IMG/VR virus record: IMGVR_UViG_3300008255_000132 | Location: 7,990 to 71,989 of that record | Source of the DNA: a virus | Strand: one strand, 5' to 3' | DNA length: 64,000 bases | In this document: in pieces, positions 1 to 28,875 of the stretch | Numbering within the stretch: the first letter of the stretch is position 1 | Layout: each line of letters starts with the position of its first letter | Notes under the pieces: model-generated | Databases searched by the model: none | Told to the model about the DNA's origin: nothing | What the model saw: only the letters and a program-made list of their open reading frames with translations | Translations under genes and position numbers: made by a program

Positions 1-1
1 G

Positions 2-3000
2 ATACCGCTCGGATATAAGCACTATGAGGTCACATCCAGCGGTGTAACCATGCTTGGTGGTGGTGTATTTCCGGGCGGGACCACGTTACGGGTAAAGGAC
101 GCGGCCGGGATCCAGTCCAAGGTCCTTGATGCACCTAGGTCTCGGGTCATGTTCGAGCGCCCGATCAATACGGATTCAGCCCAAGTGCTGTATTTAGGCA
201 CATCACTGACTGAGACCGTTGTCGATGAGAGCCGGATTACATTCGTGCGACCGTTGAATACGGGTGTGATCTGGCGTATCGACGCCCCGATCGTAGTCGA
301 CCACGATCACGCGCTGCACCGTACCGTCACGGATGGGACCGCGTTGATTACGCTACCAGCAACCCGCCCCATGAGTCTATCCGGCGGCGCGTTTCAGGCC
401 GACCACCCGGTTCTGGTCTTTATCGACGGTGTACTCCAGGATCCGACTACATATTCCCCGAGTTCAAGCAGGATCATTGCGCTCGATGCCGCACTGACCG
501 CTGATATCCCGGTTGATGTTTGGTATGTGGATGATGAGGATCCGGTAGAGCACCTGCATAACGCGTTGAGCCAGGTAACCCCGCTCACGGTCCCTGAGCA
601 GTACAGTGTGCACTACGCGGCCGCCGATACGTTCAACGCTGCGCGCTGGCCTGTGACTTTGTTCAGGGACGGGTTCCTGGATAATAACCCAGACCAGATT
701 GTTACCGTCGGGGGTCAGTTCATCCAATTAGCGGATGCCTTGACCCCGGGGATCTCAGTCCAGATAGATGCGATCCGCTCTGAGTTCCGGTATAGGCATG
801 TGATTCCCGCTCGCACTGATGTTGACTACGGCTATCAGGGTAGGATTCACAGTATCGGTACGGTACAGGATGGGGTCTCAGCGCCAGGTACCGTGCTTGA
901 GTCTGGTACCGGGTTCAGTTTTGCGCCTGCTACTGAGCCCGGCCAGGACGCGCTGTTGACCGCATCCGTGGCCTGGGATGAAGCCTGGCTCACCGACGTC
1001 GAGGTGGATGAGCGCGCTCTGCACACGGTCTGGGGCGCCCCTATCGGCGTCCTGCGCTATAACAGCTCGGACAGGTATCGGAACCTACTCGCGGCGATTT
1101 ACGGGGCCTACCGCGGCCCTAGTTTCGTAGACAGCCTAGCCAATTTCAGTTCTATCCTACTCGGATCCGCTTACCTTCCGACAGCGGGATACAGTCGCGG
1201 CATCGTGCGCAACGCCGCCGGCTCTGTTGTGCGGATCCAACCAACGGACCCGAAGAAGGATGCGATCGAGATCGCTCTGCTACAGGACCAGCCGCACCGG
1301 ATTCTAGACGGTAACATCGAGATGGCTCGACTCCGTGCTGTGAATCAGCTCGTGACAGTTCAAGACCGTGATCTTAGTTCAGTGCCATGGCTTGCGTTCA
1401 TGGCCCAAGACTTGAGCGAAGATTATGGGTACGCCAATCGCCTCGATGTGCGTGACGCTCACAGCTTCAGCTCTGTGCCAGCCGTGTTTGACGAGCCGAC
1501 CCAGGTCATAACCGACTACTCTGTCAACTTCTACGATCAAGAGGTATGGCCCGGCGATTTGGTGAAGCTGGTACTAGTAGCCGGTACCAGCCCCACGACT
1601 GGGGTCACGACATACACGGCTGACGCGCTGGGGACTGCGCCTGTGACGCGGCTTGTGTACGACTCAGCCAGTATCCCGCCACGATTGAATCTCCACGTGA
1701 CGCCGCCCGCACCGCTGGTTTGGAACTCAGGCTATTACCTGAGCTTGAGCGGTGCTGGGAGTCCCTGGGATACGGCGGTAAGTGAGGCCTTGACTGTGCT
1801 GACACAGAGCCCGGGTGCAGGCGCTGGTGGATCCACTTTGATAAAAGCCGACTGGCTCCCGACGCACGCCGCGCCTTCGGTCAACGTACTCACGCCTTCG
1901 AGTCCGTTACCGGTGCTCCAAGGTGTGGTCAAGGAGCAGAGCACCACGACCCCGAGCATTGCATCCACAATCCAGTTCTCATCGGTCAGTGCTGTGCTTG
2001 ATGCTCACAACATCAGGGTCCCTGTCGTGGTCAGCTCTGAGCACCTCGGGTATGGGGACGCGCACTACGGCGAGCACGGCTATGGCGGTGGTCTGCTCCA
2101 ATCCACGCCGTCGGCTTACACCGTATGGACCCGGCGCACTCGGCGCCTGGATACGTATCTGAGCCTGGATCACGCGCTTGACCAGGCTTATGCTTTGGTC
2201 CCTGGTGAGAGTGTGCAGCTCTTGAACCAGGAGTTGGCCCAGGTCTTGCGCCACAATGTGTTCACCATGGAGCTGGCTTGGGGCCAGATGGTAGATGCTG
2301 AGGCTCTTGGTGACCTGGCCATTTTGATCCAAGGTATCAAGCCCGCCGAGACTCGTGCCCTAGTCTACACAGAGGCATTCCCAGATGGGGTGCTATCTGG
2401 GCAGCTGACTGGTTCGATGATCGATGCTAGCCCGGTGATCGAGACCCTAGCCGACACCTTGTTCATGGGTGAGTCATGGCTAACTACAACCAAAGCAGCC
2501 AGCTTTGGGCCTGAACTTAACTACCTGTACAAGCCGTGGGAGCATCGGTTTGGCCCCCGGCTCGAGTCCGAGCTCAAGGCGCCGCCTACGACACCTGTCG
2601 AAGGCGGTTTCTACCTTGCGGCACCTAAAGGTAATATTGAGCACATAGGCGCCTGGGCCAAGACCTACGGCGCCGATTACGGCCTGGAGGGCACGGTGCT
2701 TCGTTACTATGCGAGCCCGGCTCGCTGGGTGGTGGATTCGGGGTTTCCTCCGAGTGCAGGGTTTGCTACAGACCTGAGTAACGGTGCGCGTCGATTAGTG
2801 GCTGGTCCAATAGGCTCGGCCACAGCGCAGCATAGTGCGCTAACTTTGAGCGTCGGGTCAGGCGAGCCGGTTACAGTCCACGCCAGGGTCTGGATCCCAA
2901 GCGCGTCGTACAGCGCACCGGGCACGGTTTACATTAGCTCGATGAGCCCGGATGTGTTCCAGCTCGGGCTGATCGTAACGAGCCCGGGCCTGCTTCAGCC

Positions 3001-6000
3001 TTGGTTTCGAGCTCACGCGGTCGATACACTCGCGCTTGTAGAGAGCCCATCAGCGTCGTATTACGATCGCTGGGTGAGTCTCACAGGCGTTTACCGCGAG
3101 GGTGTTGGCGGTTACTGGTATTCTGATATCTATGTTGACGACGGGGTACTAGCTGCTACCAGTTCTCCGAGTGGCTCGGCTAGCCCCACTGTGGTACCGG
3201 CTACTGGTGCCACCCGACTCACGCTAGGCGGACGAACGGCCTCGCCCAACACCAGCGAGTCATTCAAGGGTTACCTTGATGAGTTCAGGTTATATGCTGG
3301 GACCGAACTATCGAATCTGGAGATCGCAGCACTTTGGAATGGTGGCGCGCCGGTAATGCCGGAGCTTGGGATGGCGTCTGACGGCAGCCCGGTGGCCCCT
3401 GCTGGCATTTCGGCTTGGTACATATCGGAGCATCACGACCTGGGACAGGTTGTCGACATCTCTGGGCAGGGTTTTATCGCGACCAAGGTTAGCGCAGTGG
3501 CTGACGATGTGCTCAAGGACTGGCGTGTACCAGGTCTGGGCCGGTCTCTGCTACCCAAGCTGGGCGACACCTACGAGGCCAAGGTCGGTGGTCTGTATGT
3601 TGATAAGGGCCAGGTTGTGTCTAGCTTGCTTGCGATCCCGCCTACCCTAAGCAGTTACAGCCCTGAGATGGAGGATGTCTTCGCCGAGGCGCTTGGGACC
3701 AGCACCTTGCTTCCAACATTATTTGGGTACAACGATGTGTTGTACACCAACCCGGCGCCGTGGCTCCATTTTAAGGACACGGCCGGTTGGGTCCTGAGTA
3801 GCAGTAATCCGCAGGCACCCGGCTCGGCTCTAGCTTTGGATCAGGATCCGGTGTTCCTTGGTTTCAGCTCGCCACTAGCCTTGGATGCAGGTGGTATCAG
3901 CCACAGCCCGTTGAGTGCTGACATCGTGTTGGTGGGTGATCGACTAGTAGTCACTGCGGGTGCAAACAACGCCGGCGCGCTTACTCAGCTATCCCTAGAC
4001 GGCAATGAGCTCCTCAACGCCAGCCGCAAGGGGCGTGCAACTCAGTGGTCCTGTGAGTACACCGGGCGTGGTTTTGCGCGCCTGGTCAATGAGGCGGGCA
4101 CCCTCAACTACAGCCCTGATCAGGTCAGCAACTCCGTCCTCTTGTCGGCTAGTGCCGGAGATACGGCCTTAGTTACCTCAGCATACCTGGGTCACGCGGC
4201 TGGGTCCCTAGTCTACGACGGCGCCGCCTACGTGGCCGGCGGCACCGTGCTCCATAAGTACGTTGAGCTCGGATTTGGGGCCAACTCTAACGTTGTCAAG
4301 GTTTCGGCTCATTTCGAGCGTGATTCGAGTACCAAGGACGGGGCCTGGCGCAGCCAGTTTACGACCAGCACGGTTGCTGCCTTGAATCAGATCTGGGTAT
4401 ACCAGCCTGGTGTGAACGAGGCGCCGGTCTCGATTACAGCCCCAGGTGCTATCAACTACCCGACAACCTGGGTTGGTGGTGCTATTTTATCGAATCAGGC
4501 CCAGGATCTGGCTATTGGTGTATTCCACCGCAAGCCGGCCACGGCTACCGGCTGGTTCCAGACCCAGCTCCTAGCAGCCCCGGATAGCGTGGCTTCAAGT
4601 CCTCTTGGGATCTATAGCTCGCTGCTCAACGATCAGGAGTTTCTGGGTGCAAATCCTGGTGTAAGTGCCGGATCGTTCCGGACCGAGCGTTATATCGTAT
4701 CCGGCACTCTGATCGAGGTTGTAGGCGGCTTCAATCAGCTTGCTTACGAACTGGAGGGCGTCCAGCCCTTAATTACCGGTCCGACGCCGGCTACATACCT
4801 GGACATCGTGCAGGGCCCGGATCCGATGACGCTTGGTGCCAGTTTCGGGCTCGTAGTCCAGGCTAAAGGCTCTGGTGGTCTGATTGATACCGGGTTTAAT
4901 TTGACAGGCCTTTTGTCTCTGGTATCGGGCCCAGGCACCCTGAGTGGTGATCTGAACCCGGTGTTCATAGATGGTGAGGCTGTGGTTAGCCCGCTCACTC
5001 TGAGCCTGAGTGGTGGCTACCAGGTCATGGTCACAGCGGCTGGACTTGCGCCTGACCTTGTCACGGTCCAAGTCAATAACCCAGCTCCGTACGCCGTTTC
5101 ACCGACATACTTCATATCGAGCCCGGCTCAGGGTGCGCTGACCCTGTACGGTACTGACTTCATGTCGGTGTCCTACGTGGTCTATTCGAATTGGACCGGG
5201 AGCCCAGACCCGTATCCGAGCACATTGACTTATGTGAGCCCAGGCGAAGTTAGGTTCACACCACCGGCTACTATCCTGTCAGCATCGCCGCAGACTCTGA
5301 CCATCTCGGTCCATAACCCGGGGCCTGGTGGTGGCGCTACAGGTGAGATACCACTTACGATTGAGTCCCCAGCGACGCCGTCCCCAACGGTTGTGATCCC
5401 TGTCGCAGATCACATGCTGTTCAGCACACCCCCGGCATTGCCTGCGTTTCCTCGGGTCGGGCAGGCCACGTTACTTGGGGCGGTAGCTGTTGACTCGACG
5501 CTGGGGTATGCGCTTGATGTAACCGCATCGGGATCGGTTACCTTGAGCCCTGTGTCTATGCCGGCGGGCGCTGTGATTGGTGGTGTATTGAGTCGCGAGT
5601 TAGGTGCAGTCGCCGCAGGTTATTCGGTATTCACAGATATAACGTTTAATAGGGCCGGAACTTACGTGCTAGATGTGGTGCACGAGAGTCCGGCAGTGGT
5701 CGCCACTACATCGCCATCGCTGACACTGTTCGTATTAAACAACGCACCGACCGTTACCAGTTTGATGCCGGATAATACCGACCAGGGTACGCAAAGTCTC
5801 ACGCTCCAGGTTTTCGGCACCAACTTCGTTGAGACTGACACGGAGGTGTTACTTAGCGGGTTTCCCCGGCCTACGACTTATGTAAGCCCGGGTGAAGTCA
5901 CTGCGCTACTCGGCGCGTCTGACTTTCTTGTACCACAGGCTTACGGTATTTCGGTACTCACGAACCAGGGTGGTGGCGCCAGCAGTGCACTTACGTTCAC

Positions 6001-9000
6001 GGTCAATGGCGGCGTCGGTTCAGGATTGGCTGAAGAGGACCTATCCCCAACTATCCGTGTTCTTGGCCCAGACACGTACCAACGGGTCTTGCCTGTAGAA
6101 GGTTCGGTCCTGACCGCTGCGATGGGTCAAGCCCTGCATCGAGCTATTGAGCTGACCGGTAAGGCCACGAACGGAGCCCCGATCCACGTTTATGACGGGT
6201 CGGTCGGCGCTATCGAGGTCATCGAGATTAGCGCAGGTGCCTACAGCGCCCTCGGTGTACGCCCGGGCGCTCAGCCTGTGGCAGCGCTTAACGTTGACAT
6301 GGCTTGGCCCCCAGATGCGCTCCACCCATTGGTGATTCGGGCTGCGAAATGGACCACATCGACGGTCCCGGTCGGCGCGCAGGTCGGGGCACCCGAGCCG
6401 GTGGTGCTTATGCCCCCTCCTAACGACGTCAACAACTCTGGTGATACTCTGGGTCACATCCGAAACCCGTTGTCATCGTATTGGCACCTATACGACATCA
6501 ACATCCTGACGGCGTCACGCACCGGAATGATCACGATGGACAACAAAGGCTCTGGTACGGGTATTTCCAACCCTACCTACAGTTGGCTCGGTTGGCACTT
6601 TACACGTTGCCCGTTGCTGGGTCGTCATGACCACCGCACGTATCGACTCGATCATAACCGCTGGATTGTTGGGGCACAGGAACCTGTCGCAGCTCTGGCC
6701 CAGTTTGACAACGATGGTTCGGTGCTGCCGGCTAAGACTTGGGCACTTGACGACCTGCATCGTGCCCGGTTTGGGCGCCGGCTCACATCCAGTAACGGCT
6801 TTGCATCATCGTGGGCATCGCTCACCTCAATTCCTGCTGGTCAGATTACAGCAATCCACTCAGCCGTGTTCGTTGACCCGAGCCAGAACGTACACCGGGT
6901 CGGTTTGGCGTCGACTAGTGGTGATAAGCTCGTTCATATCGGCCTAGGGCTATTTGACCCGCTAGAGCCGGGTCTTGCGGCGCTGGGTACCGATGATTTC
7001 ATCAAGGCGGCGCCGTTCAACCCGATCACATCCCCTTTGCAGTACGCTACACCGCCGTCGCTGAGCTATACCATGGATGTGACGTGGCTTACCAACGGGT
7101 CGTTCGACGGCGTTCCCGGGGCTGGTGGGACGGTACAGGTTTGGGATCGTGTCGACGACACCACGTTAAGTGCGGGCGCCGTTCTGACGTCGGCCGGCAC
7201 TTTCAGCGTGCCATTGACCCACGGCGTGTCATCTGCCTTCATTTCGCTCACGGGCGCGGGGTCTTTCGCGTTCCGCGCCACAATCAAGGACGAGTTGGGT
7301 AATGCCGTTAAGGACCCGGCCAACCCCGATGCCGACCTGACTCGGAACGCTCTTATTCAGGTTACTCAGCACGGAATGAGCGCGTCACCAGCATCTATTG
7401 CTGTCGTCTATGACATTCCAGATCTTGAAGTGATCGCGTTATCCAACGTTACCTGGGCTTTGGACACGAACTGGACCACGGAGCCGTTCAGTGTAATCCT
7501 GGAGGCACGGACCGATCAAGGTCAGCTATCGATGGAGGTTGATGGCGCGGTTCGTGTCTCGATCAAGAGCGTGAAGACGGTCGAGGGCGTGGACATCACC
7601 CCGACCCCATACATTCTGTCCACGGAGCAGGATCACCTAATGCGTGGTGGTGTCTGCCACGTTATGGACCTGCATCCACAATTTACATCTACTGGTCCGG
7701 GTGATCTCCAGGCGATTCTAAGCGCGTCGGCTTATAGCTACGCGATCATGACCCTGGCTATGACCCCAGTCGGTACAGGGCATGTTAGTCTCGATTCACA
7801 GGAATTCACGTATGAACTCGGTGTCTGGCCCCCGGGCGGCCAGCGTGGTACAGACCCTTCGGCGCTTCCTGCCACGCTTCAGACCTACCCGTGGGCGGCC
7901 CGGCTCACTGACAAGGCGTGGTTAGGGCCTGTTGTTGATGATAACTGGCTGGCTTTAGCCCCTAATAGCGCAATCTCGGCGATTGAGACCAACGCGCCGG
8001 CTCTGGCTAAGATCAAAACCGCGACAGGGTTGCCATTTTGGTCCGGCTGGCCTGGTGATCCGGCGCACCCCAATTTCCGGCTAGGTTATCAAGCGATCTA
8101 CCCTGACCCGTCGATATGCCCAAACCTGACCTACGTCGGCTACCCCGCGACGGTGGCGTCTACCAAGTGGGCGGCGCTCCCGTTCTACTGCGACGACTGG
8201 GTCTATGAAGGCGGCCTAGTCATAAATATTGAGCAAGAGCACGGTTTCTACTTTCATAACACGGCTGGTGACACCGCGGTCAGGGATTCCACCATTATGA
8301 ACGTCGGGCGTACTGCGATCCAGAAGGCAGATAGACGGCTCGAGAACCCGTATTCTGATGTAAACGACCCGAATGACACCGGAGGCCCCGGCCGTGGTGT
8401 GTTCCGGGTCAGTAACAATACGATCATGGAAACGGGCCTGAACGATGGCGGCGGCTCAATCACACTGGCCGGGCATGGGCCGGACGGTGAGTTGATCGTG
8501 GAGGGCAATGCAGTGTTCAACGGCTATGACGATTCGTTAGCCGCTATTCGCAACATCTCTGACGGTATGTTTGGGGCCTCGATGACGGTATGGGGTGAGG
8601 CTTTAGCATCGACAGGTAGTACCACATTCACGCTCTGGAGCCTCGGGTTCAAGACGAACGGTTACCAGCAGTGGAACCCGTTCCTGCTGCGGTCTAATGG
8701 GGCTCCGGTATTCACCTATGCCGAAATCCAAGCCAACCTGGCTCATAAACTCGATTACTTCGGAGCCCTAGGTGTTGTTGGCGGAGACGGGACCCCGGTG
8801 CCTACCCCAACCTGGTACACCGACCTTCTCTACGGCTACCCGATGATGACTTACGCGGGCCAAGTTCTCGGGCTTACAGCGGATGACGGTTTCGCAGGCG
8901 CTAGTCCACAGGTGTATTTAGGGCTTACGCCGGACCCGATCTACGGTATGGGCAGCCCGACATACGGGAGCATGCACCAGAACGGACGGGTCACAGTTCG

Positions 9001-9409
9001 TAATAATCTGTTTGAGACCAACACTCCGATCCAGGGCCGGTCCTGGTCCAGCGCCCTACCTAGCCTCAACCCATATGTATCGGTTTACGCATCTGGGACC
9101 ACATATAGCAACACGCCGACCGTGATCCTTGGCGACATGCGTGAGTTGATCTTCGATAATAACACGATTCACCAGTCGGGTAGCAATGCGTTGTTCCTAG
9201 ATGAGACCGTCTCGGTCTGGACTAGTCCCCTGGAGAAAACGTCAACGCCGCCGTCCGGTATCTCTGGCGGCGACAAGCGCCTGATTATGAAGAATGCGCC
9301 TATCTGGCAGCTGTCTGGTGGCGGGAATATTATTCCAGGCCAGATACTGCGCTTTGGCGTGTCGGCACCGGCTGCGCTTATTCAACAACTCACGAGCCCT
9401 GCCACCTGA
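2..9409 (+). CDS. Giant multidomain baseplate/tail structural protein (>=3119 aa, probably 5'-truncated by the window)
   Basis: Frame is open from nt 2, upstream of the track ATG at 50. N-terminal V-F-x-D-G-V-L-Q beta repeats; baseplate-wedge-like segment (..LIQGIKPAET..); LamG-like domain (WVSLTGVY..IYVDDG..FKGYLDEFRLY, about 2870-3450); two IPT/Ig-like domains (YVSPGEV twice, about 5080-6010); C-terminal beta-helix-like region (VSNNTI, VEGNAV, VRNNLF, FDNNTI). Confidence 0.75.
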   Translation: MPLGYKHYEVTSSGVTMLGGGVFPGGTTLRVKDAAGIQSKVLDAPRSRVMFERPINTDSAQVLYLGTSLTETVVDESRITFVRPLNTGVIWRIDAPIVVDHDHALHRTVTDGTALITLPATRPMSLSGGAFQADHPVLVFIDGVLQDPTTYSPSSSRIIALDAALTADIPVDVWYVDDEDPVEHLHNALSQVTPLTVPEQYSVHYAAADTFNAARWPVTLFRDGFLDNNPDQIVTVGGQFIQLADALTPGISVQIDAIRSEFRYRHVIPARTDVDYGYQGRIHSIGTVQDGVSAPGTVLESGTGFSFAPATEPGQDALLTASVAWDEAWLTDVEVDERALHTVWGAPIGVLRYNSSDRYRNLLAAIYGAYRGPSFVDSLANFSSILLGSAYLPTAGYSRGIVRNAAGSVVRIQPTDPKKDAIEIALLQDQPHRILDGNIEMARLRAVNQLVTVQDRDLSSVPWLAFMAQDLSEDYGYANRLDVRDAHSFSSVPAVFDEPTQVITDYSVNFYDQEVWPGDLVKLVLVAGTSPTTGVTTYTADALGTAPVTRLVYDSASIPPRLNLHVTPPAPLVWNSGYYLSLSGAGSPWDTAVSEALTVLTQSPGAGAGGSTLIKADWLPTHAAPSVNVLTPSSPLPVLQGVVKEQSTTTPSIASTIQFSSVSAVLDAHNIRVPVVVSSEHLGYGDAHYGEHGYGGGLLQSTPSAYTVWTRRTRRLDTYLSLDHALDQAYALVPGESVQLLNQELAQVLRHNVFTMELAWGQMVDAEALGDLAILIQGIKPAETRALVYTEAFPDGVLSGQLTGSMIDASPVIETLADTLFMGESWLTTTKAASFGPELNYLYKPWEHRFGPRLESELKAPPTTPVEGGFYLAAPKGNIEHIGAWAKTYGADYGLEGTVLRYYASPARWVVDSGFPPSAGFATDLSNGARRLVAGPIGSATAQHSALTLSVGSGEPVTVHARVWIPSASYSAPGTVYISSMSPDVFQLGLIVTSPGLLQPWFRAHAVDTLALVESPSASYYDRWVSLTGVYREGVGGYWYSDIYVDDGVLAATSSPSGSASPTVVPATGATRLTLGGRTASPNTSESFKGYLDEFRLYAGTELSNLEIAALWNGGAPVMPELGMASDGSPVAPAGISAWYISEHHDLGQVVDISGQGFIATKVSAVADDVLKDWRVPGLGRSLLPKLGDTYEAKVGGLYVDKGQVVSSLLAIPPTLSSYSPEMEDVFAEALGTSTLLPTLFGYNDVLYTNPAPWLHFKDTAGWVLSSSNPQAPGSALALDQDPVFLGFSSPLALDAGGISHSPLSADIVLVGDRLVVTAGANNAGALTQLSLDGNELLNASRKGRATQWSCEYTGRGFARLVNEAGTLNYSPDQVSNSVLLSASAGDTALVTSAYLGHAAGSLVYDGAAYVAGGTVLHKYVELGFGANSNVVKVSAHFERDSSTKDGAWRSQFTTSTVAALNQIWVYQPGVNEAPVSITAPGAINYPTTWVGGAILSNQAQDLAIGVFHRKPATATGWFQTQLLAAPDSVASSPLGIYSSLLNDQEFLGANPGVSAGSFRTERYIVSGTLIEVVGGFNQLAYELEGVQPLITGPTPATYLDIVQGPDPMTLGASFGLVVQAKGSGGLIDTGFNLTGLLSLVSGPGTLSGDLNPVFIDGEAVVSPLTLSLSGGYQVMVTAAGLAPDLVTVQVNNPAPYAVSPTYFISSPAQGALTLYGTDFMSVSYVVYSNWTGSPDPYPSTLTYVSPGEVRFTPPATILSASPQTLTISVHNPGPGGGATGEIPLTIESPATPSPTVVIPVADHMLFSTPPALPAFPRVGQATLLGAVAVDSTLGYALDVTASGSVTLSPVSMPAGAVIGGVLSRELGAVAAGYSVFTDITFNRAGTYVLDVVHESPAVVATTSPSLTLFVLNNAPTVTSLMPDNTDQGTQSLTLQVFGTNFVETDTEVLLSGFPRPTTYVSPGEVTALLGASDFLVPQAYGISVLTNQGGGASSALTFTVNGGVGSGLAEEDLSPTIRVLGPDTYQRVLPVEGSVLTAAMGQALHRAIELTGKATNGAPIHVYDGSVGAIEVIEISAGAYSALGVRPGAQPVAALNVDMAWPPDALHPLVIRAAKWTTSTVPVGAQVGAPEPVVLMPPPNDVNNSGDTLGHIRNPLSSYWHLYDINILTASRTGMITMDNKGSGTGISNPTYSWLGWHFTRCPLLGRHDHRTYRLDHNRWIVGAQEPVAALAQFDNDGSVLPAKTWALDDLHRARFGRRLTSSNGFASSWASLTSIPAGQITAIHSAVFVDPSQNVHRVGLASTSGDKLVHIGLGLFDPLEPGLAALGTDDFIKAAPFNPITSPLQYATPPSLSYTMDVTWLTNGSFDGVPGAGGTVQVWDRVDDTTLSAGAVLTSAGTFSVPLTHGVSSAFISLTGAGSFAFRATIKDELGNAVKDPANPDADLTRNALIQVTQHGMSASPASIAVVYDIPDLEVIALSNVTWALDTNWTTEPFSVILEARTDQGQLSMEVDGAVRVSIKSVKTVEGVDITPTPYILSTEQDHLMRGGVCHVMDLHPQFTSTGPGDLQAILSASAYSYAIMTLAMTPVGTGHVSLDSQEFTYELGVWPPGGQRGTDPSALPATLQTYPWAARLTDKAWLGPVVDDNWLALAPNSAISAIETNAPALAKIKTATGLPFWSGWPGDPAHPNFRLGYQAIYPDPSICPNLTYVGYPATVASTKWAALPFYCDDWVYEGGLVINIEQEHGFYFHNTAGDTAVRDSTIMNVGRTAIQKADRRLENPYSDVNDPNDTGGPGRGVFRVSNNTIMETGLNDGGGSITLAGHGPDGELIVEGNAVFNGYDDSLAAIRNISDGMFGASMTVWGEALASTGSTTFTLWSLGFKTNGYQQWNPFLLRSNGAPVFTYAEIQANLAHKLDYFGALGVVGGDGTPVPTPTWYTDLLYGYPMMTYAGQVLGLTADDGFAGASPQVYLGLTPDPIYGMGSPTYGSMHQNGRVTVRNNLFETNTPIQGRSWSSALPSLNPYVSVYASGTTYSNTPTVILGDMRELIFDNNTIHQSGSNALFLDETVSVWTSPLEKTSTPPSGISGGDKRLIMKNAPIWQLSGGGNIIPGQILRFGVSAPAALIQQLTSPAT

Positions 9410-15274: not shown

Positions 15275-16356
15275 GCCGCGGATTTACCAGCACGTACCAG
15301 GCTGTAAACCTGATCCGTAACGGGAATCTCGATATGGTCGAGACGCGTGAGGACGGGACTAAGGACGCGCACTTCTGGCATATGACCGACTTGAGCCAAG
15401 TCGAGTCACAGACCACGGTGGTTGATAACATGCTTGAGTTGGTGCAGGTTGAGCCGGGTGTGGCGCCAGCCAACCGGTTCCGGATTCAGCTCGCGGCAAG
15501 TAAGGCGGCTCTGTTGTACCAGGACCTGCGCCGATCAGCTTCGACCCACGTTATGGATTTTCAGGTTCCATTGACACCAGGCTTGCGCTCATCGCTTGCA
15601 TCAGGCTACCTCTCTACCGAGACTCACACGCTACCCGCCGCTAATTACACGCTAGCATTTTCTATGCGTGTTACCCAAGGCGAGGTGCGCATCAATGCAG
15701 CAACCTGGGACCTACACGGGGTGCGCACTGTGCCTACCTATATGCCTGGTGGCGGTGAAGTGGTGGCTGGTCCAGGGTCATCCTGGAAGCGCAGCGTGTT
15801 AACGTTTACGACCGATCAAGGCCTAGGCCAGGTCGGTCTCGAGCTCAGGCGCGTTGCTGGTCAGGATCTTACTGTGGTTGAGATAGGCCTCGTAGCGCTG
15901 GCCCTGGGCCGGTACCGGAGCTTGCCGTACACTGGTGATCCGCTGGTTGGTGCGCTGCCAGTCGGTGCTATTATATTAAGCCTGGGTCAGGCCTGTCCAC
16001 CGGGTTTTGTCGAGCTCGGCGAGGGGGGTCTAGAGCCGCTTAGCGACTGGACCAGTGACGAGCCCGCTGTAAAGGCGCGCAAAGGTAATTACCCACGTTC
16101 CGGTAGCGAACAAGTGGGCACAACGACCCACGGTGTAGATCAGCTCGAGTTAGCCCCTGGTCAGACTGACGCGCTAAGCTTCTACGGGCCTGATAGTAAA
16201 ACGGCGAAGGACGCTAACTTGGTGGATATGGGGTTTGCCAACCCCGCGGTGGATAAGCCCGGAGGCCCCCAGGGAGCTCCGCTACACGAGCACTCGATGG
16301 AGGCGGCCGGAACCCGGCCCGTGAGTCGCAGTTATCTATTCTGCAAACGAATCTGA
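15271..16356 (+). CDS. Tail fibre protein with collar domain (paralog 1)
   Basis: NLIRNGN CBM-like N-terminus; collar motif LPVGAIILSLGQACPPGF; HEH; C-terminal PVSRSYLFCKRI. Confidence 0.7.
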   Translation: MSRGFTSTYQAVNLIRNGNLDMVETREDGTKDAHFWHMTDLSQVESQTTVVDNMLELVQVEPGVAPANRFRIQLAASKAALLYQDLRRSASTHVMDFQVPLTPGLRSSLASGYLSTETHTLPAANYTLAFSMRVTQGEVRINAATWDLHGVRTVPTYMPGGGEVVAGPGSSWKRSVLTFTTDQGLGQVGLELRRVAGQDLTVVEIGLVALALGRYRSLPYTGDPLVGALPVGAIILSLGQACPPGFVELGEGGLEPLSDWTSDEPAVKARKGNYPRSGSEQVGTTTHGVDQLELAPGQTDALSFYGPDSKTAKDANLVDMGFANPAVDKPGGPQGAPLHEHSMEAAGTRPVSRSYLFCKRI

Positions 16357-21662: not shown

Positions 21663-21931
21663 TGTCAGCTCCAGCTATAACGCTCTATTATCAAAGCGAC
21701 TGCGGCTTATGCCCGGCTGTAATTGAGGCCTGTGCATCTCGGGCAGAGGCTCTAGGTGCGCCTATCCTTATCCGTAAGCCGACGTTAGAGGAACTGAGGT
21801 CAGGGCGTATCCCTGGTTATCCAGCTCTTTTCGTGCCGGCTGGGGTCAAAGGCCTGGCCCGCCCCTACCTTCTCGTCGGAGCCGGCCTCGAAAACCTCCT
21901 TGACCAGTTATTGAGTTCTACGGATGGCTGA
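21662..21931 (+). CDS. Thioredoxin/glutaredoxin-like protein
   Basis: GTG at 21662 overlaps the upstream TAG. ITLYYQSD-CGLC-P plus the cis-Pro-type loop GYPALFV. Confidence 0.65.
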   Translation: MSAPAITLYYQSDCGLCPAVIEACASRAEALGAPILIRKPTLEELRSGRIPGYPALFVPAGVKGLARPYLLVGAGLENLLDQLLSSTDG

Positions 21932-24900
21932 CCTCAGGATTATATCTCAGACCCTCCCACTACTTTTTGTGGGGGATGACTACGCGGTCCGGCTCCAGGC
22001 CCGCGGTGGTACTGCTCCGTACACGTGGACATTAGACTCCGGCGCGCTCCCAAATGGGGTCAGCCTCGATGCGTCAACCGGTGAGCTCTCGGCGTCGGCT
22101 GTAGATCTACTTGCAACCGATGTAGGCGATTTTACGCCTACGTTCCTGGTTACAGACGCGGTCGCGACTACCAGCAGCCTATCGGTTACGCTCACGTTGC
22201 GACCTGCGTCATACCGCAGGGTCAGTGCCGTGTTACTAGACCCCAGGCTCGAATCACTACTCTCTATTTGGGATGTCGGTGTAGCGTCCCGTGCGCAGAT
22301 TGTAGCACACTTTGCGCAGGGTCCGGCCTATACCGCGATGACGCCTGCCGGCCTGTTCAAAGAGGATGTCTGTGTTCACTACGCAGATCAGATCTGCTAT
22401 AGTCAGACCACCGCAAGTCCGCAGAGCCCCGATACGGGCCCTGATCAGACCGTATGGGACAAGCTACAAGAGTTAGACCAGGGCGGGAAGATACTAGCTG
22501 AGCCTAAGATCATCACGATTACGGCTTATAGTTCGACCGAGACATCCGACACGCCTCAGATCGTCTCAGGTTTTGGCCATAACAGCGCATTACTTGGCGA
22601 AGGCCTAGGGCTTCACATTGTGGGCCACGATTACGGCCCAACTTACGGCAGCCCTGAGGATACGCTTGGATATTTCGCGCTAGCACAACGCTTTACGCTT
22701 CCAGGGGCGGCCAGCCCGGCTAGTGTGACATTGTACCTGAGTCGGTACAGTAGCCCCGCGACGCTAGGTAACCTGGTCGTAGGGTTGTCCACAGCGAGCC
22801 CCGGTAATGTGCATATCCCGGCTGGTACTACATCGAAAGCCTGGGGCGACGGTTCGTCTCTCGTCGCCAGCGGCTCTCTGAGCTTGGCTGATGTAACTCT
22901 TGATACAGCCAGGACAGCGTGGACGTCGGCTAACGCGTATTCGGTCACGCTAAACATGAATAGCCCGTATACAGGGCTTGATGCGAATCGGAACTACTAC
23001 CTTGTTGTTGGCGCTGACTTCAGCGGAAGCCCTTTCCTAGAGATTGCAGCCTCGGTTGATGATGTAGCCGATCTGGTCCCGGGTAGTGAAGCCGTGGCGC
23101 TGACCGCTGGTACCGGTAGCCCGTACCACAACCCGGGTATTACCGCCAGCCCGGTACTTTACGTACCGTATGAGCTTGCGGCTAGTCCAGTTGAGGTGAC
23201 GGGCATTGCTTTCAAGCTAACGGCGGCCTGGACCGACCCCATTGTGGGCGTTGTGGCGCTATCCGAGGTGGATCCGTACGCTACCGGCCCCACGATCTAT
23301 GACCGGTACTGGGTTGGTACCACGGATATGTCCGCGGCTGATACTAGGGACATCGCGTTCCGGATTATCGACGGCTATGAGCGCACAAGCGGTAGTCCCG
23401 TACTGGATCAAACCAACTTTGATGAGCTGGTCGATGCCTACGGAAACCAGGCTAGTATTGTCGAGGTGCAGACTACTACTGGCGTTGAGGTTGTGCCTAG
23501 TGGGGGTGGCCAAACGGATGCCGACGGCTTTCTCACGACGGGTGGCGCACGGCTCCGTGTCCAGCTTTTACCGAATTCTCGTGGAACTCTTCCAGAGCTC
23601 CCATTCCGCGTCTTGGCCGGGAGTCGTCGAGCTCTTGCCAACTTGAGCGCGGATAGTCTGATCCGTACCGCGAACAAGACGGGGTCGACTGACGCGGCTG
23701 TTCTGGCTGCTATTGCCGCAGTCAACCCGTCGAACCCGCTTCTGAGCCTGAGCCAATCTCTCAAACCAGACGCATCAGGCAACATTGAGCTCACGACGGG
23801 TAGTGGCGCTTTGGCTTGGGTCCTGAACGCCGGCTCATTTACAGCTGAGCTTCGATTCGCGGCACAGATCGTGGCCACAAACCAGGGCAGCAGCCCACAA
23901 GGATCAATCGACTTCGACAACGATGGCGTCTTGACCCTGGATGCAGCCGATAGCTCGATCACTCTAACCCCGATCCCAAGTTCTAACACGATTCGGATTG
24001 CGGCCGATAGCGGTATTACGACGCTAAATACGGTAGCACCAGATGGATCCGGCGGTCTTAGCCTAATTGCGGGCACGGACACGACGCATGCTACTCAGGT
24101 ATTCACTACGATCGCAGCCGGTTCGGTATCGAACACTATTGAGATCGGTACCAACATCCCAGACGCAACCACAATTGCGGCGGGCCTACTCGGGGTTACT
24201 GATAAGCAGCGAATTGATGCGTTGTTCGCTGGTAATGATGACGTAACTACGGTGGTAACCGGTGGCCTAGCCGGCGGGCACGCGCATGAATCTACAGCAC
24301 TAGCCCTAGGCCGCACTTTGGGCGGTTACTCGACATTGCTCAGCTCTATGAGCATCGCCGATGCGATCGAGGCTCTCAACTTAGTGCTTGCAGCTCAGTT
24401 TACGACTGCATCGGAGGCACCAAACCTGATCACGGTAACCACTAGCTATGTAGATTTTGCTAGTGGGTACCTATCGCTTGGTTCTAATATCAACTACGCA
24501 AGCCCTACCCACATAGCCGGGGCGGCTATCACTGATCTTGTTGAGGCCTCGGCCGGTACTGTGATCACGGTCACTTCGACCCCGTTCGGAAACCCGGGTA
24601 ATGCAGGTACAGTTCGTGTTCAGCTTGAGAATAGCCCAGGCGCAACCAGCCCGTGGTACACGCTTGAGCTTTTGGATCTAGACCAAACCTATTCGAACTC
24701 GTTAGCGGCTATAGGCGGTAGCCCGCCAAATTACACATCGGTGGCCAGTCACATGCAGGCCAACCCGCTGAACGCGTTGGGCGGGGCCACGACCAAGATC
24801 AGCTTTGCCAGCGTGAGCTACTCCGGATTGAGCCTAGCGGCTGCGCCTGTGTTTGAGCTCCAGATCCGGGCCACACCGGTGCTATCCGATCTACCCAATA

Positions 24901-26456
24901 CGTTCGGGCATAACCGGATCAGGTTGTTTCAAGATACGGGAGCATCGACCTACGCGTCAAATGCGATAACTCTGGTCAAGGATGAGTACGCTGGGGCTAA
25001 CGATCCTGTGATAACGACAGCCGTAATTCAACTCCCGACAACTGTAGTCCCGGTTTGGCTAAGCGGGGTCCCGCACTATCCGGCAGCTACTGATCCGGCG
25101 TTTAGGTTCACGGCCGAGAATCTGTTCGATATTGCCTACGTCCAGCAGCCGATCCGGGTCTACGATGCTGACGATAGTCCGACTCAGATCACGTTCCAGT
25201 ACTACGATACTGAGACCGCGAGCCCGCACAGCACGGCCTGGGTCCCGAGCCCGATCGATGTGTTTCAGATCGGTATAGCGGCGGAGCCTTACTCGATTAC
25301 GACTAAGGATATGACTTTCCTAGTCGGTACCAACGAGATTTCGAGCCGTACCCTGACGCTAGAAGTTTCGGATCCGCACGGTGTTCAGGCAACCCAAGCC
25401 TTGATCTACGCGGATCCGACCGCAAGCCCGGGGCGGCTCCTTCACACAGGGCGTGCCGGCCTCAGTGCTGGTGGTCTACAGAGCGAGACGTTTGCCAATG
25501 AGAAATATCGCATCGATCCATTGGATTGGGGCGGTGTTGACCTAGCCAGCCCTGTGGCTAGTCCCGTATTCACCCTGATCACGATTCAGCCGGCTGGTAA
25601 CGGGACTACAGACAGTGACACATATGGCTGGCCTAACGAGACGGCACTGACTGAGTTCTCGGCTGCCAATACGTGGAACGCGACCACGGGCAGCTTGAGT
25701 GCGGCGACGCGTTCCGGTGTTAGTGTGGCCTACGATGCAGGTGTCTTGAGCTCACTCCCGGCTGAGGTCACGGACCTGGGTCTGGTCCACCCGGGCTACA
25801 GTGCGCTCTACAACTTTGCTGACCATAGTTATGCGCCGGCCGAAACAAGCCCTTACAACGCGTATGGCGCGCTAAGCAGCCCGCTAAACTACTATGATGC
25901 GTATTATGCGCAGGGCTCGGTTGTTTACTACCGCCTATTCCAATCGAGCACAGCCACAAACCAGGGCCGGCTTCGTATATACGGCTACAACAGGAGCGCG
26001 GCGAGTCCGATCCCTACTATCTTGAGTCACGAAGATGTCGGCAGCCCAATCAGCACATCTGATATGACTGGATCGTTCCTAAACCTGGGCCCGGCGGCGA
26101 GCCCGACTCCGGTCATGAGTGGCGTCAGTCTTGAGGTTAAGTACCCGAGCGCGACACGGACCCCAATTGGTAATCCAGGCGCGACCGGTTGGCTCGACGC
26201 CTTGACTGAGCCAGGTTCCAGTTTGTACGCTATGGGTGAAGACGGGTACGGGGCGCTTGACACCTCGGTACACAGTACCGGCATGGTCCAAGGTGCTGGT
26301 TATGTTGACGTGTACTGGCGTACTGGGTCGTACACGACCGGGATGAGTAACAAACAGGCCGTAGTCCGGGTCGGGTTGCACGATAAAGGTTTTGTGATCA
26401 CGGGTGTGGATATGCTCAACCAGAGTACGGACACACCCTGGAGTAACGGGGCCTGA
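21924..26456 (+). CDS. Large virion surface/fibre protein with N-terminal Ig (He_PIG-like) domain
   Basis: GGTAPYTWTLDSGALPNGVSLDASTGELS; fibre motifs LKPDASGNIEL, VAPDGSGGLSL and ATTIAAGLLGVTDKQRID; strongly Ser-Pro rich. Confidence 0.7.
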   Translation: MADLRIISQTLPLLFVGDDYAVRLQARGGTAPYTWTLDSGALPNGVSLDASTGELSASAVDLLATDVGDFTPTFLVTDAVATTSSLSVTLTLRPASYRRVSAVLLDPRLESLLSIWDVGVASRAQIVAHFAQGPAYTAMTPAGLFKEDVCVHYADQICYSQTTASPQSPDTGPDQTVWDKLQELDQGGKILAEPKIITITAYSSTETSDTPQIVSGFGHNSALLGEGLGLHIVGHDYGPTYGSPEDTLGYFALAQRFTLPGAASPASVTLYLSRYSSPATLGNLVVGLSTASPGNVHIPAGTTSKAWGDGSSLVASGSLSLADVTLDTARTAWTSANAYSVTLNMNSPYTGLDANRNYYLVVGADFSGSPFLEIAASVDDVADLVPGSEAVALTAGTGSPYHNPGITASPVLYVPYELAASPVEVTGIAFKLTAAWTDPIVGVVALSEVDPYATGPTIYDRYWVGTTDMSAADTRDIAFRIIDGYERTSGSPVLDQTNFDELVDAYGNQASIVEVQTTTGVEVVPSGGGQTDADGFLTTGGARLRVQLLPNSRGTLPELPFRVLAGSRRALANLSADSLIRTANKTGSTDAAVLAAIAAVNPSNPLLSLSQSLKPDASGNIELTTGSGALAWVLNAGSFTAELRFAAQIVATNQGSSPQGSIDFDNDGVLTLDAADSSITLTPIPSSNTIRIAADSGITTLNTVAPDGSGGLSLIAGTDTTHATQVFTTIAAGSVSNTIEIGTNIPDATTIAAGLLGVTDKQRIDALFAGNDDVTTVVTGGLAGGHAHESTALALGRTLGGYSTLLSSMSIADAIEALNLVLAAQFTTASEAPNLITVTTSYVDFASGYLSLGSNINYASPTHIAGAAITDLVEASAGTVITVTSTPFGNPGNAGTVRVQLENSPGATSPWYTLELLDLDQTYSNSLAAIGGSPPNYTSVASHMQANPLNALGGATTKISFASVSYSGLSLAAAPVFELQIRATPVLSDLPNTFGHNRIRLFQDTGASTYASNAITLVKDEYAGANDPVITTAVIQLPTTVVPVWLSGVPHYPAATDPAFRFTAENLFDIAYVQQPIRVYDADDSPTQITFQYYDTETASPHSTAWVPSPIDVFQIGIAAEPYSITTKDMTFLVGTNEISSRTLTLEVSDPHGVQATQALIYADPTASPGRLLHTGRAGLSAGGLQSETFANEKYRIDPLDWGGVDLASPVASPVFTLITIQPAGNGTTDSDTYGWPNETALTEFSAANTWNATTGSLSAATRSGVSVAYDAGVLSSLPAEVTDLGLVHPGYSALYNFADHSYAPAETSPYNAYGALSSPLNYYDAYYAQGSVVYYRLFQSSTATNQGRLRIYGYNRSAASPIPTILSHEDVGSPISTSDMTGSFLNLGPAASPTPVMSGVSLEVKYPSATRTPIGNPGATGWLDALTEPGSSLYAMGEDGYGALDTSVHSTGMVQGAGYVDVYWRTGSYTTGMSNKQAVVRVGLHDKGFVITGVDMLNQSTDTPWSNGA

Positions 26457-27022: not shown

Positions 27023-27952
27023 ATGGCACTGAGCGATATTACGATCGAGTCCTACATTGAGAGCCTCATCAAGAGGGCTCAAGGCCAGGGGCATACATCG
27101 GAGTCGTTCGGTCTTTATGAGGACCCAGCACCGCGTAGCGGTCCTGGATCTGGGTTACCTAGCCACCCGATACTGCACGCGAATCAGATCATCGGGGATA
27201 CCCTGGTGGTCCCGCCCCCGGATCTCGGGCATCTAGGCGACAACGGGACTATCAAGCAGTTCGGTAATCAGTGGGTTACGACACCCTGCGTCGCGATGCG
27301 TTTGACCGAGATTACGACGGTCGGCGATAGTCGGGCTTGGATCGCGGTTGACGGTGTTGACGCTACGGTTGACGAGCCCTGGGCGTTCAAGGCGCCGGGT
27401 GTCGGATTCCTTGATACCTGGGTCAATGGGGACGCGGCCGCGTCCGCGGTCCAGAACTCTAACGGGTATTCGTACAAGGCTCGGTTTTGGTGGGGTGAGC
27501 CTGAACCTATCAACGAAATAGATTTCGCGGTCCACCCAAGCAAGCCGTTCTGGGATCCGAGCACTGGTATCTTGGTTTGGGCCAAAGCGAGTCCGTATGC
27601 ATCGATCATCGCGCCGGCATCACCGCTCTGGTTCACTGGGTACCTTTATACAGGCTCTACAGTTAAGAGTCTACTCAACGCGGCCGGCGGTTCTAGTAAC
27701 CCTTGGACACGTGTCGTAGGTTGTATTAACGGCGGCACAGCTGGTGTTGGTATTTTGGGTATGGCTGTGACCTATGACATCACGTTGGAGGTGTACAACA
27801 CTACAACAGCGCTTGTCTATCAGAACGGAGTCCTGCTCAAGCCAATCGTGGACTACACGTTCCCTACCACAACATCATTGCGCTTCACGCAAACGCGTCG
27901 CCGGCTTTCGGGTGGCGATGAGATTCAGGCCCAGTACGAGACGGCATCATGA
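27023..27952 (+). CDS. Putative virion structural protein
   Basis: 309 aa; C-terminal ALVYQNGVLLKPIVDYTF..GDEIQAQY repeat typical of large-phage structural proteins. Confidence 0.6.
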   Translation: MALSDITIESYIESLIKRAQGQGHTSESFGLYEDPAPRSGPGSGLPSHPILHANQIIGDTLVVPPPDLGHLGDNGTIKQFGNQWVTTPCVAMRLTEITTVGDSRAWIAVDGVDATVDEPWAFKAPGVGFLDTWVNGDAAASAVQNSNGYSYKARFWWGEPEPINEIDFAVHPSKPFWDPSTGILVWAKASPYASIIAPASPLWFTGYLYTGSTVKSLLNAAGGSSNPWTRVVGCINGGTAGVGILGMAVTYDITLEVYNTTTALVYQNGVLLKPIVDYTFPTTTSLRFTQTRRRLSGGDEIQAQYETAS

Positions 27953-28875
27953 CTATGGTAACCCCGGGACTAGTTTCACTGGCAGTCCGTTTTAAGATTG
28001 ATGGTGTTGATCAACAGGTCGAGGCGTTGCGGGCCGAGGTCTACAATTCGCTTGGTGTATTGCAGCACACGGCCGTGTTCGGCAGCCCGGTCGGAGGAAT
28101 TGAGATCACGGAAGTAATCGCAAGCCCGGACATCACCTATGAGATTACGGATCTTGATGTATCCGACCACCTGGCATGGCCTGGTGCCTTTCTTACTGTG
28201 GCATGGACCGTGTTGGACAGTCCAGCTGTGTTTGATCCTGAGACTAAATTCTATTCTTTTATCCCTACGTCACCACTCCCCAGCACGAGCACAGTGTTGA
28301 CTTGGGCGCCAACCAGGGCTGAACCTCTGTTCGTTGGATACACGATATACCGCCGGCTGCCGGACCAGACCGCGTGGACCTATGTAGGTAGTTCCGACTT
28401 CCCGGCTTTCGTCGATACGGCTGAGTTCAGCTCGGAGCTCCTGGCACTGACCGCCGAGTATGAAATCCGGGTCTTGACTCAGGACAATTCAGACCCTACT
28501 GGGACTGAGCTAGCCGAGGTCGCAATGACCCAAACTCTGACATTATCTAAGTACCGGACTGATCAGTCCCTATGCTTAGTTGTGGGCCAGATTGTGGATG
28601 TAGGGGGCCGTCCAGATACGGATCAGATCGTAAACTTCTTCATACACGCGAAGGATGCGCCGACTACGCTTGGCCTGACCACCTTCAAACAGGCGGCTGT
28701 GACCGTGCCCCTTACGGCCTACGGTAAATTCGCGGCGCATCTGGTCCAAGGCACCCTGGTAACGTGTGAGATACCGAGCGCAGGCTACACTGCGCGTTTC
28801 GTGGTCCCGACCCAACCTTCGGCATTGTTGGCCGATCTGACCACGATCCCCGTCGAACTTCTCAGGGGCGAATAG
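27949..28875 (+). CDS. Structural protein with FN3/Ig-like domain
   Basis: LTWAP..GYTIYRR..WTYVG..FVDT FN3-like signature; ATGA overlap. Confidence 0.55.
   Translation: MTMVTPGLVSLAVRFKIDGVDQQVEALRAEVYNSLGVLQHTAVFGSPVGGIEITEVIASPDITYEITDLDVSDHLAWPGAFLTVAWTVLDSPAVFDPETKFYSFIPTSPLPSTSTVLTWAPTRAEPLFVGYTIYRRLPDQTAWTYVGSSDFPAFVDTAEFSSELLALTAEYEIRVLTQDNSDPTGTELAEVAMTQTLTLSKYRTDQSLCLVVGQIVDVGGRPDTDQIVNFFIHAKDAPTTLGLTTFKQAAVTVPLTAYGKFAAHLVQGTLVTCEIPSAGYTARFVVPTQPSALLADLTTIPVELLRGE

Follow-up and report, generated by a model that had tools for sequence, protein, structure and literature searches.

Why should every serine that stands directly before a proline in one large phage protein be written with the same half of the serine codon set? 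The question is raised by a gene at positions 21924-26456 (+ strand) of a 64,000-base stretch of viral DNA (the window, positions 7,990 to 71,989 of IMG/VR record IMGVR_UViG_3300008255_000132), an open frame under genetic code table 11 that encodes 1510 amino acids (aa), 153 of them Ser and 92 Pro, and whose product is probably a tail- or baseplate-associated protein. It contains 28 Ser-Pro dipeptides (SP sites) where its composition predicts 9.3 (Poisson P = 6e-7), and 5 Pro-Ser. All 28 SP serines are coded AGY (22 AGC, 6 AGT), while the remaining 125 serine codons of the gene divide into 62 AGY and 63 TCN (Fisher p = 5.3e-8), and synonymous-codon shuffles within the gene give a mean of 16.4 in-frame AGYCC, with none of 200 reaching 28. 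These tests reject chance or composition as the source of the pattern, and the observation, reported from hand counts of the dipeptides and codons in a preliminary description of the sequence, is confirmed as real and far beyond chance. The AGY-only coding is read here, tentatively, as a historical or mutational lock on a Ser-specific (Ala/Gly/Ser)-Ser-Pro loop motif. A literature search, which did not extend to supplementary files, found no paper on a Ser-Pro motif restricted to AGY codons in any phage protein. The window comes from a virus record of 71,989 bases (G000) with an estimated completeness of 37%; since this record runs collinearly with another of 193,018 bases that has terminal repeats (G001), it is regarded as a fragment of a jumbo-phage genome of ~193 kilobases (kb).

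The residue preceding the SP serine is Ala at 12 sites, Gly at 6, Ser at 3, Thr and Asn at 2 each, and Gln, Asp and Pro at 1 each. Ala, Gly or Ser occupies this position at 21 of the 28 sites against a background of 31% (p = 2.6e-6), and with Thr included the preference described earlier holds at 23. The motif is Ser-specific, because Thr-Pro occurs 9 times in the protein against ~10 expected, and the choice of Pro codon after the SP serine is ordinary. As had also been described, large proteins encoded elsewhere in the window have few SP: there are 2 in the 1393-aa protein, 2 in the 1726-aa protein and 7 in the 2041-aa RNA polymerase.

The only Pfam domain matched by the 1510-aa protein lies outside the SP-bearing part, and a second domain is defined by short homologues:

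21972..22196 (aa 17-91), + strand: N-terminal He_PIG immunoglobulin-like (Ig) domain (PF05345, E = 5.6e-7, 30.3 bits against a cut-off of 24), with no SP inside.
22212..23633 (aa 97-570), + strand: domain common to the short homologues P0091-P0093, beta-sandwich-like fold, 12 SP sites.

A search of 5.8 billion proteins returned 88 hits, 84 of which span the Ig domain alone; the full-length relatives are three, namely P0003 (73% identity), P0004 (71%, the G001 orthologue) and P0005 (69%). A profile search of 1.84 billion representatives with the Ig domain left out added P0090 (1536 aa, 46% identical) and the short P0091-P0093, which share aa 97 to ~570. Conservation of the motif is high among the long relatives. 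The G001 orthologue keeps all 28 query SP sites and has 37 SP against 10.6 expected, 37 of 37 coded AGY (33 AGC, 4 AGT). Across the four close homologues there are 37 SP columns, of which 24, corresponding to 24 of the query's 28 sites, are invariant, against an adjacent-pair baseline of 32%. P0090 has 43 SP (12.6 expected), 22 on shared columns and 21 on new ones. At three columns of alignment A4 (348, 892 and 903), P0090 has SP where the serine of G000 and G001 is coded TCG or TCT and precedes a residue that is not Pro; at 892 this applies to G001 alone, G000 having Val. The short homologues contain 3 SP against 4.0 expected (P0091), 3 against 2.5 (P0092) and 9 against 3.4 (P0093). Hence SP density is kept up, and in part renewed, within the long subfamily, and the fold does not require it. 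SP is clearly under selection at the protein level. The individual sites, with three positions at which the query lacks an SP found in its homologues, are as follows:

22416..22421, + strand: S165, AGT CCG; SP in all four close homologues.
22425..22430, + strand: S168, AGC CCC; TP in P0005; synonymous C>T at 22430 in one contig.
22437..22442, + strand: Gly172-Pro, GGC CCT, a lost or latent SP; SP in P0003, P0004, P0005 and P0090.
22650..22655, + strand: S243, AGC CCT.
22713..22718, + strand: S264, AGC CCG; NP in P0005.
22752..22757, + strand: S277, AGC CCC.
22797..22802, + strand: S292, AGC CCC.
22962..22967, + strand: S347, AGC CCG.
23028..23033, + strand: S369, AGC CCT.
23118..23123, + strand: S399, AGC CCG.
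23130..23135, + strand: Asn403-Pro, AAC CCG, a lost SP; SP in the other homologues.
23148..23153, + strand: S409, AGC CCG; SL in P0005.
23184..23189, + strand: S421, AGT CCA.
23286..23291, + strand: Gly455-Pro, GGC CCC, a lost SP; SP in the other homologues.
23394..23399, + strand: S491, AGT CCC; SA in P0005.
23892..23897, + strand: S657, AGC CCA.
24501..24506, + strand: S860, AGC CCT.
24633..24638, + strand: S904, AGC CCA.
24648..24653, + strand: S909, AGC CCG.
24720..24725, + strand: S933, AGC CCG.
25176..25181, + strand: S1085, AGT CCG.
25221..25226, + strand: S1100, AGC CCG.
25248..25253, + strand: S1109, AGC CCG.
25425..25430, + strand: S1168, AGC CCG.
25548..25553, + strand: S1209, AGC CCT; first half of an ASPV-ASPV doublet.
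25560..25565, + strand: S1213, AGT CCC; second half of ASPV-ASPV.
25848..25853, + strand: S1309, AGC CCT.
25878..25883, + strand: S1319, AGC CCG.
26004..26009, + strand: S1361, AGT CCG.
26043..26048, + strand: S1374, AGC CCA.
26100..26105, + strand: S1393, AGC CCG.

Hydrophobicity around the SP sites peaks at positions -6, +2, +4/+5 and +7, with no hydrophobic residue at -1 in the 1510-aa protein and few in the four relatives (0.03-0.16), a spacing that suggests a short loop between two strands. In an AlphaFold2 model of aa 97-570, of low confidence (mean predicted local distance difference test, pLDDT, 53.9), 11 of 12 SP fall in coil and one at the start of a strand; a model of aa 1040-1510 (pLDDT 28.4) was unusable. 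A Foldseek search with the first model gave just weak matches to jelly-roll folds and to the phi812 baseplate (template-modelling score ~0.2), and a search of the ESM Atlas gave no usable match. BLASTP of the 1510-aa protein against itself returned the self-hit alone, with no repeats carrying the motif. An internal repeat protein, in which one ancestral SP unit had been multiplied, is rejected, as the visible doublets are just ASPV-ASPV, SPQSP and SPGATSP.

The AGY restriction is a genuine second layer on top of this protein motif. Homologues were compared at the codon level between G000 and G001 only, the others being compared as proteins; four-fold sites of the gene are saturated between the two genomes, 326 of 485 differing (p-distance 0.67). 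As SP exceeds its expectation, so the AGY preference exceeds the codon-pair background: in 497 bacterial open reading frames (ORFs), drawn from loci that a metagenome scan matched through the common Ig domain, serine before proline is AGY in 363 of 1085 cases (0.33) against 0.38 overall, and in the rest of G001 it is AGY at 0.50, like serine before other codons that start with C (0.45-0.51). A generic codon-pair or next-base bias is rejected by these backgrounds and by the shuffles. With its three SP-richest genes removed, G001 has an AGY share that tracks the first base of the next codon (C 0.45-0.51, A 0.23-0.37, G 0.29-0.40). AGY is also rejected as a mark of old or constrained serines: of 23 non-SP serines invariant in all five proteins, 7 are AGY in both genomes, 11 are TCN in both and 5 differ in class, and the 18 SP serines invariant to the same degree are all AGY in both genomes. 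Nor does the loop context favour AGY generally, since serines at offsets -3 to +4 of AGY-coded SP sites divide 38 AGY : 43 TCN, and distant serines 377:445.

The same tendency, in weaker form, is found in other proteins of the two genomes:

1..9409 of the window, + strand: G000 giant protein, 3435 aa, its 5' end before the window; 38 SP against 20.9 expected, 26 AGY and 12 TCN; Pfam Laminin_G_3.
27949..28875 of the window, + strand: 308-aa protein with 4 SP (3 AGY); its G001 orthologue has 6 SP, all AGY.
G001, giant protein of 3406 aa: 53 SP against 22.6 expected, 42 AGY and 11 TCN.
G001, protein of 1262 aa: 36 SP against 10.1 expected, 29 AGY and 7 TCN.
G001, protein of 1258 aa: 23 SP against 6.6 expected, 13 AGY and 10 TCN.

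The large SP-rich proteins of G001 have no similarity to one another. A model worked by hand arithmetic, in which all excess SP are AGY and the expected SP follow each gene's own ratio, predicts an AGY:TCN division of 39:13.6 for the G001 giant (observed 42:11), 25.5:12.5 for the G000 giant (26:12) and 30.4:5.7 for the 1262-aa protein (29:7); for the 1510-aa gene it predicts ~5 TCN, and none is observed. Fibres are depleted of SP: a G001 protein of 1410 aa (181145-185377) has 0 against 7.0 expected (P = 0.0009), the 1726-aa G000 protein (28876-34056) has 2 against 9.2 (P = 0.005), and the fibre-like protein at 16356-20537 of the window has 2 against 6.7. Pro-Ser counts in the fibre-like proteins are at expectation (7-8). 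Among the 3 SP of the major capsid gene, 2 are TCN. The 1258-aa protein (G001 73633-77409; L087:13633-17409, + strand) consists in part of tandem repeats of ~190 bases with 62-81% mutual identity, whose repeated TSLGSP motif contains both TCN and AGY serines.

The historical lock tentatively favoured here would work as follows. An (Ala/Gly/Ser)-Ser-Pro motif would occupy short loops that lead into the beta-strands of a large protein of the tail or baseplate, where it probably caps surface loops or serves for recognition or modification; selection retains existing sites and has added others in relatives. The two serine codon islands, AGY and TCN, are not linked by any single mutation. SP serines would arise from Gly (GGY) or Asn (AAY) and turn back into them through single transitions, and some sites would have been copied through small local duplications. 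If Ser itself is required in the 1510-aa protein, there can be no passage via Thr, Ala or Cys to TCN. The AGY-only coding would then most likely be an evolutionary footprint rather than a signal. We infer that all the SP sites originated within the AGY island and that the lock has been tight enough in this gene to hold them there.

The replacements found at SP columns are of this kind. Close homologues without Ser have Gly (columns 172, 455, 954), Asn (264, 403) or Thr (168, 210), and those without Pro have SL, ST, SA or SM; Gly and Asn are the main route by which the serine is replaced. Where G000 has GGC-CCT, AAC-CCG or GGC-CCC and the others have SP, each codon is one transition from AGC. 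One such change appears within natural samples as G>A at 22437, converting GGC-CCT (Gly172-Pro) to AGC-CCT (Ser-Pro) in one contig of run X6, at a depth of 2.6, which makes the call a weak one; across four low-depth DNA runs, all 7 differences from the window are transitions. The ASPV-ASPV doublet (25545-25568) reads GCC AGC CCT GTG and then GCT AGT CCC GTA, and looks to be an old tandem duplication of 12 bases whose third codon positions have all changed since. Over all genes, where Pro has been gained or lost beside a retained Ser, 6 of the SP alleles are AGY and 4 are TCN, a slight point for the historical reading. The giant protein (55% identity between the genomes) evolves faster, and its SP serines have been decaying to TCN: of 29 conserved SP, 17 are AGY in both genomes, 12 have switched class and none is TCN in both. 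Local conservation is alike at switched and unswitched sites (0.54 and 0.57), and in G000 5 of 8 switched codons are TCC opposite AGC, with TCC accounting for 29 of 157 non-SP TCN codons (binomial P ~0.007 by hand arithmetic). This pattern fits an ancestor in which all SP were AGY and which is now decaying, and it speaks against the giant gene being under strong selection of this kind today.

Several results weigh against the lock as the whole account. A single-step mutation model gives a probability of AGY of 0.39-0.47 for ordinary genes, and at most 0.74 with the 1510-aa gene's own X-Pro pool and a kappa of 8, far below 37 of 37; the model fits 37 of 37 only if precursors are restricted to Gly and Asn. 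The transitions to and from Gly and Asn are real, and alone they are insufficient for AGY at all 37. The share of Pro that follows Gly, Asn or Asp is 0.17-0.21 in this protein and 0.12-0.22 in other large proteins, and this equality indicates that the SP are extra rather than a converted pool; conversion of the Gly/Asn/Asp-Pro pool is not supported. Residues aligned with SP in the short homologues are diverse (Thr, Ala, Ser, Gly, Val, Asn, Pro), in a poor alignment of ~30% identity, and any Pro gained beside existing serines ought to have produced SP coded TCN. Class switching is common at non-SP serines, at 15 of 78 conserved sites in this gene (19%) and at 5 of the 23 invariant ones (22%), as it is at the giant's conserved SP sites (12/29), those with well-conserved surroundings included. 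At these rates the 0 of 28 switches among the SP sites of the 1510-aa gene has a probability of ~0.003 (0.81^28) or ~0.001 (0.78^28) by hand arithmetic, so that either the lock is much tighter in this gene or the codon is itself selected. The structure models, at the pLDDT values given above, are too poor to confirm the loop position of the motif.

The absence of class switches in the 1510-aa gene also speaks for the second-ranked reading, only slightly less likely than the lock: direct selection on the codon, under which AGY-CCN would be favoured over TCN-CCN in translation at functional SP sites of late genes and the function of the protein would depend on a synonymous choice. Possible reasons include tRNA-Ser(GCU) in the peptidyl (P) site ahead of the slow Pro step, an insensitivity of AGY to serine shortage, or a codon-dependent co-translational event. 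The absence of switches persists across saturated divergence; three apparently young G001 gains of SP (A4 columns 221, 292 and 876) are all AGY; SP sites not shared between the two genomes divide 49 AGY : 22 TCN over all genes; and the bias is limited to the Ser directly 5' of Pro and is seen in several unrelated proteins of the lineage, not in the bacterial background. According to PMC3862929, serine-starved B. subtilis and E. coli translate AGY and TCN codons differently. On the other side, TCN-CCN occurs at background rates in other genes of both phages, the major capsid gene among them, the giant tolerates TCN at conserved SP sites through apparently recent AGC to TCC changes, gains and losses of Pro beside a retained Ser leave some SP alleles TCN, and the Pro codons that follow are ordinary. 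There is no known mechanism, and no tRNA-Ser gene was found in G000, which has no tRNA gene at all, or in G001, which has just two for tRNA-Leu. The more specific proposal, that SP function itself is codon-dependent because decoding by tRNA-Ser(GCU) before Pro gives an outcome which TCN does not, is unlikely; such outcomes may be modification during translation, a pause that lets the strands fold one by one, or shielding from a host stress acting on UCN decoding.

The preliminary description had proposed that SP is a selected modification sequon, for O-glycosylation or phosphorylation of exposed virion proteins, reached by transitions from Gly-Pro and Asn-Pro codons; a host enzyme or an unrecognised phage enzyme would act on it. 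This concerns the function of the motif and could hold together with either explanation of the codon bias. The proposal is partly supported: SP is selected and is gained at new positions, its losses are mostly of Ser to Gly or Asn by one transition, and GGC and AGC segregate at one such column in natural samples. The roughly threefold excess of SP retained in five homologues while individual sites turn over, the lack of enrichment in short homologues of the same fold, the small residue at -1 and the excess of SP over Pro-Ser all point in the same direction, and its best argument is the enrichment of SP in other large virion proteins together with depletion in two fibres. As to enzymes, Glycos_transf_2 (PF00535), Glycos_transf_1 (PF00534), Glyco_tranf_2_3 (PF13641), Glyco_transf_9 (PF01075), Pkinase and the prolyl hydroxylase family 2OG-FeII_Oxy_3 had no match in G000 or in the complete 193-kb G001, in searches that did find matches in named control genomes (3 to 14 of 14). 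Pfam scans of 40 mid-size and large G001 proteins (with ~120 mostly small ORFs outside the scan) likewise gave no transferase or kinase, the domains found being those of replication, recombination, sigma-factor, ThiF, JAB and reverse transcriptase proteins only. The glycosyltransferase, kinase and tRNA-Ser genes that the preliminary description had suggested seeking were thus absent from both genomes for the families searched. Phage virions assemble in the cytoplasm, which excludes periplasmic oligosaccharyltransferases. Proline-directed Ser/Thr-Pro phosphorylation fits poorly with Thr-Pro at expectation and no phage Pkinase, host kinases being outside the search; phage-encoded O-glycosylation lacks a match in the four glycosyltransferase families, other families being outside it; and a hydroxyproline/Ser-Pro glycomodule of the extensin, arabinogalactan or chlorovirus prolyl hydroxylase type lacks a 2OG-FeII_Oxy_3 match. 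A sequon acting on the protein alone does not explain the codon restriction, nor does the proposed route from Gly-Pro and Asn-Pro, given the 0.39-0.74 AGY of the mutation model. Overall, a sequon appears rather improbable.

Two further proposals of the preliminary description did not hold. That AGYCC is a DNA or RNA signal (for methylation, restriction, recombination or binding) which happens to read as Ser-Pro is effectively refuted and is rated very improbable: AGCCC is slightly above Markov expectation genome-wide (245 against 206.7 in G000, 708 against 645.9 in G001), but AGYCC is strongly frame-biased, with counts over the three frames of 28/0/3 in the G000 gene and 37/2/0 in the G001 gene, and its reverse complement is at expectation (2/2/2 in the G000 gene). 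Frame 2 would read common Ala/Val-Leu/Pro pairs and yet is unused, the third positions of both codons drift freely between G000 and G001, no extended DNA context is conserved, and Markov k-mer expectations indicate no DNA-level skew. Frame-1 TCNCC lies below the synonymous-shuffle level in several G000 genes, an effect not seen in G001; a DNA motif or TCNCC avoidance is rejected by the frame counts and shuffles, with no k-mer avoidance under Markov expectations. Restriction avoidance of GGCC or GGGCCC as the force driving GGC to AGC is rejected as well, since neither ranks in the top eight for depletion among words of its length in G000 or G001, and both are present inside the 1510-aa gene. 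Other words are scarce: CTGCAG is absent from both genomes (30.7 expected in G000, 74.3 in G001), and G001 is nearly without AAGCTT (2 against 62.8 expected), ATGCAT (2 against 33.7) and TTAA (2 against 71), which looks like restriction-site avoidance.

Context-dependent decoding or editing, by which AGY before CCN would not be ordinary serine, has the complete codon restriction as its sole point in favour and is scarcely credible, given that the frames are open under table 11, that AGY and TCN interchange freely at aligned conserved serines in most genes (4 of 81 sites in the RNA polymerase, in addition to the 15 of 78 above), that neither genome has a tRNA-Ser gene, and that the G001 reverse transcriptase lacks a template/variable repeat. 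The second and third of these observations against it also reject codon reassignment or a special tRNA. The reverse transcriptase (367 aa, RVT_1 E = 4e-14) is encoded at 94652-95755 of G001 (L088:14652-15755, - strand) in the replication region. BLASTN of its region and of the whole genome found no template/variable repeat pair, and with 24 of the 37 SP columns invariant, a diversity-generating retroelement target is rejected.

Several known systems resemble parts of this pattern. Brenner, in 1988 ('a tale of two serines'), is said to have used the unconnected serine codon families as descent markers at essential serines. The likeness is that an essential Ser keeps the codon family of its origin because single-step paths cross another residue; here, unlike there, one family is shared by ~28-37 independent sites of a single protein and by further sites in unrelated ones, all defined by a neighbouring Pro, and the remaining invariant serines of the protein are drawn from both families, with switches between them. 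Multi-nucleotide serine switches are the reported subject of 10.1101/2020.05.13.091652. The codon bias also recalls antibodies, in that AGY is used in one functional class of sites against the overall use of the gene and is one step from Gly, Asn, Arg and Thr. Wagner, Milstein and Neuberger reportedly described AGY serine codons in antibody complementarity-determining regions (CDRs) in 1995. PMC5118421 reportedly describes a concentration of AGY serines in CDRs under the phrase 'codon bias targets mutation'. CDRs are variable hypermutation targets; unlike them, the phage SP sites are among the most conserved of the protein, with no diversifying element acting. In SinR of Bacillus subtilis, TCN and AGY serine codons serve as a translational sensor of serine starvation (PMC3862929); as described there the two families are not equivalent for the ribosome, which makes codon-level selection conceivable, but the effect is context-independent and gene-wide, unlike that in the phage, which is confined to Ser before Pro. 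A SinR-type sensor is rejected for the 1510-aa gene, whose non-SP serines show no gene-wide skew (62:63).

At the protein level, a Ser before Pro at a predicted loop-to-strand junction with a small residue at -1 would fit a side-chain-capped turn. Turns of this sort, among them the Asx-turn and ST-turn motifs with Pro and the S/T-P-X-X turn, tolerate Ser, Thr, Asp or Asn. The phage protein differs in being enriched in Ser alone, neighbouring fibres avoid SP, and the geometry here is a predicted one. ST-turns are reportedly listed among small motifs in PMC2651126. For modification, a precedent for O-linked change of cytoplasmically made virion proteins exists in mycobacteriophages. Their capsid and tail proteins are reportedly glycosylated by phage-encoded glycosyltransferases (Freeman et al. 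2023), unlike G000 and G001, which have none of the four families searched.

The 1510-aa gene sits in a structural module and adjoins fibre-like genes; its product had no match in PHROGs or in 50,697 deposited phage records. PHROGs matches in the genome include terminase, head protease, major head protein and a fused RNA polymerase beta/beta'. The match between the two records runs from 159.8 kb of G001 across its ends to 37.6 kb, and G+C is 63% in G001 and 57% in G000. G001 has 123-base terminal repeats, genes for a sigma-70-like protein, a family A DNA polymerase and DnaB-like, UvrD-like and RecA-like proteins, and the two tRNA-Leu genes. Adjacent ThiF (E1-like) and JAB-domain proteins in G001 (L088:10757-13499, - strand) suggest, from their domains, a ubiquitin-like conjugation or deconjugation module. 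Sequencing runs that contain the gene carry groundwater or aquifer metagenome labels, and no RNA run is among those listed. Scans of viral contigs with P0090, P0003 and P0005 as queries gave nothing new, a scan of genome contigs for further homologue DNA gave no match, and a terminase scan for related genomes yielded just a further copy of G001.

The AGY-only Ser-Pro motif and its odd codon restriction are thus partly explained. If the historical lock is correct, the gene would be an unusually clean natural example of the split serine set recording the origin of functional sites and constraining their evolution, and it would also flag, in the large tail proteins of an uncultured jumbo phage from groundwater, a loop motif specific to Ser. 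If the codon is selected, synonymous sites would be functional in a virion protein, with consequences for recoding, for expressing phage proteins heterologously and for codon-evolution models; were SP function codon-dependent, the phage would be writing structural-protein information into synonymous choice at some 30 sites per gene. Under either reading, the fact that some virion proteins are enriched in SP and neighbouring fibres avoid it would point to a surface property or a modification.

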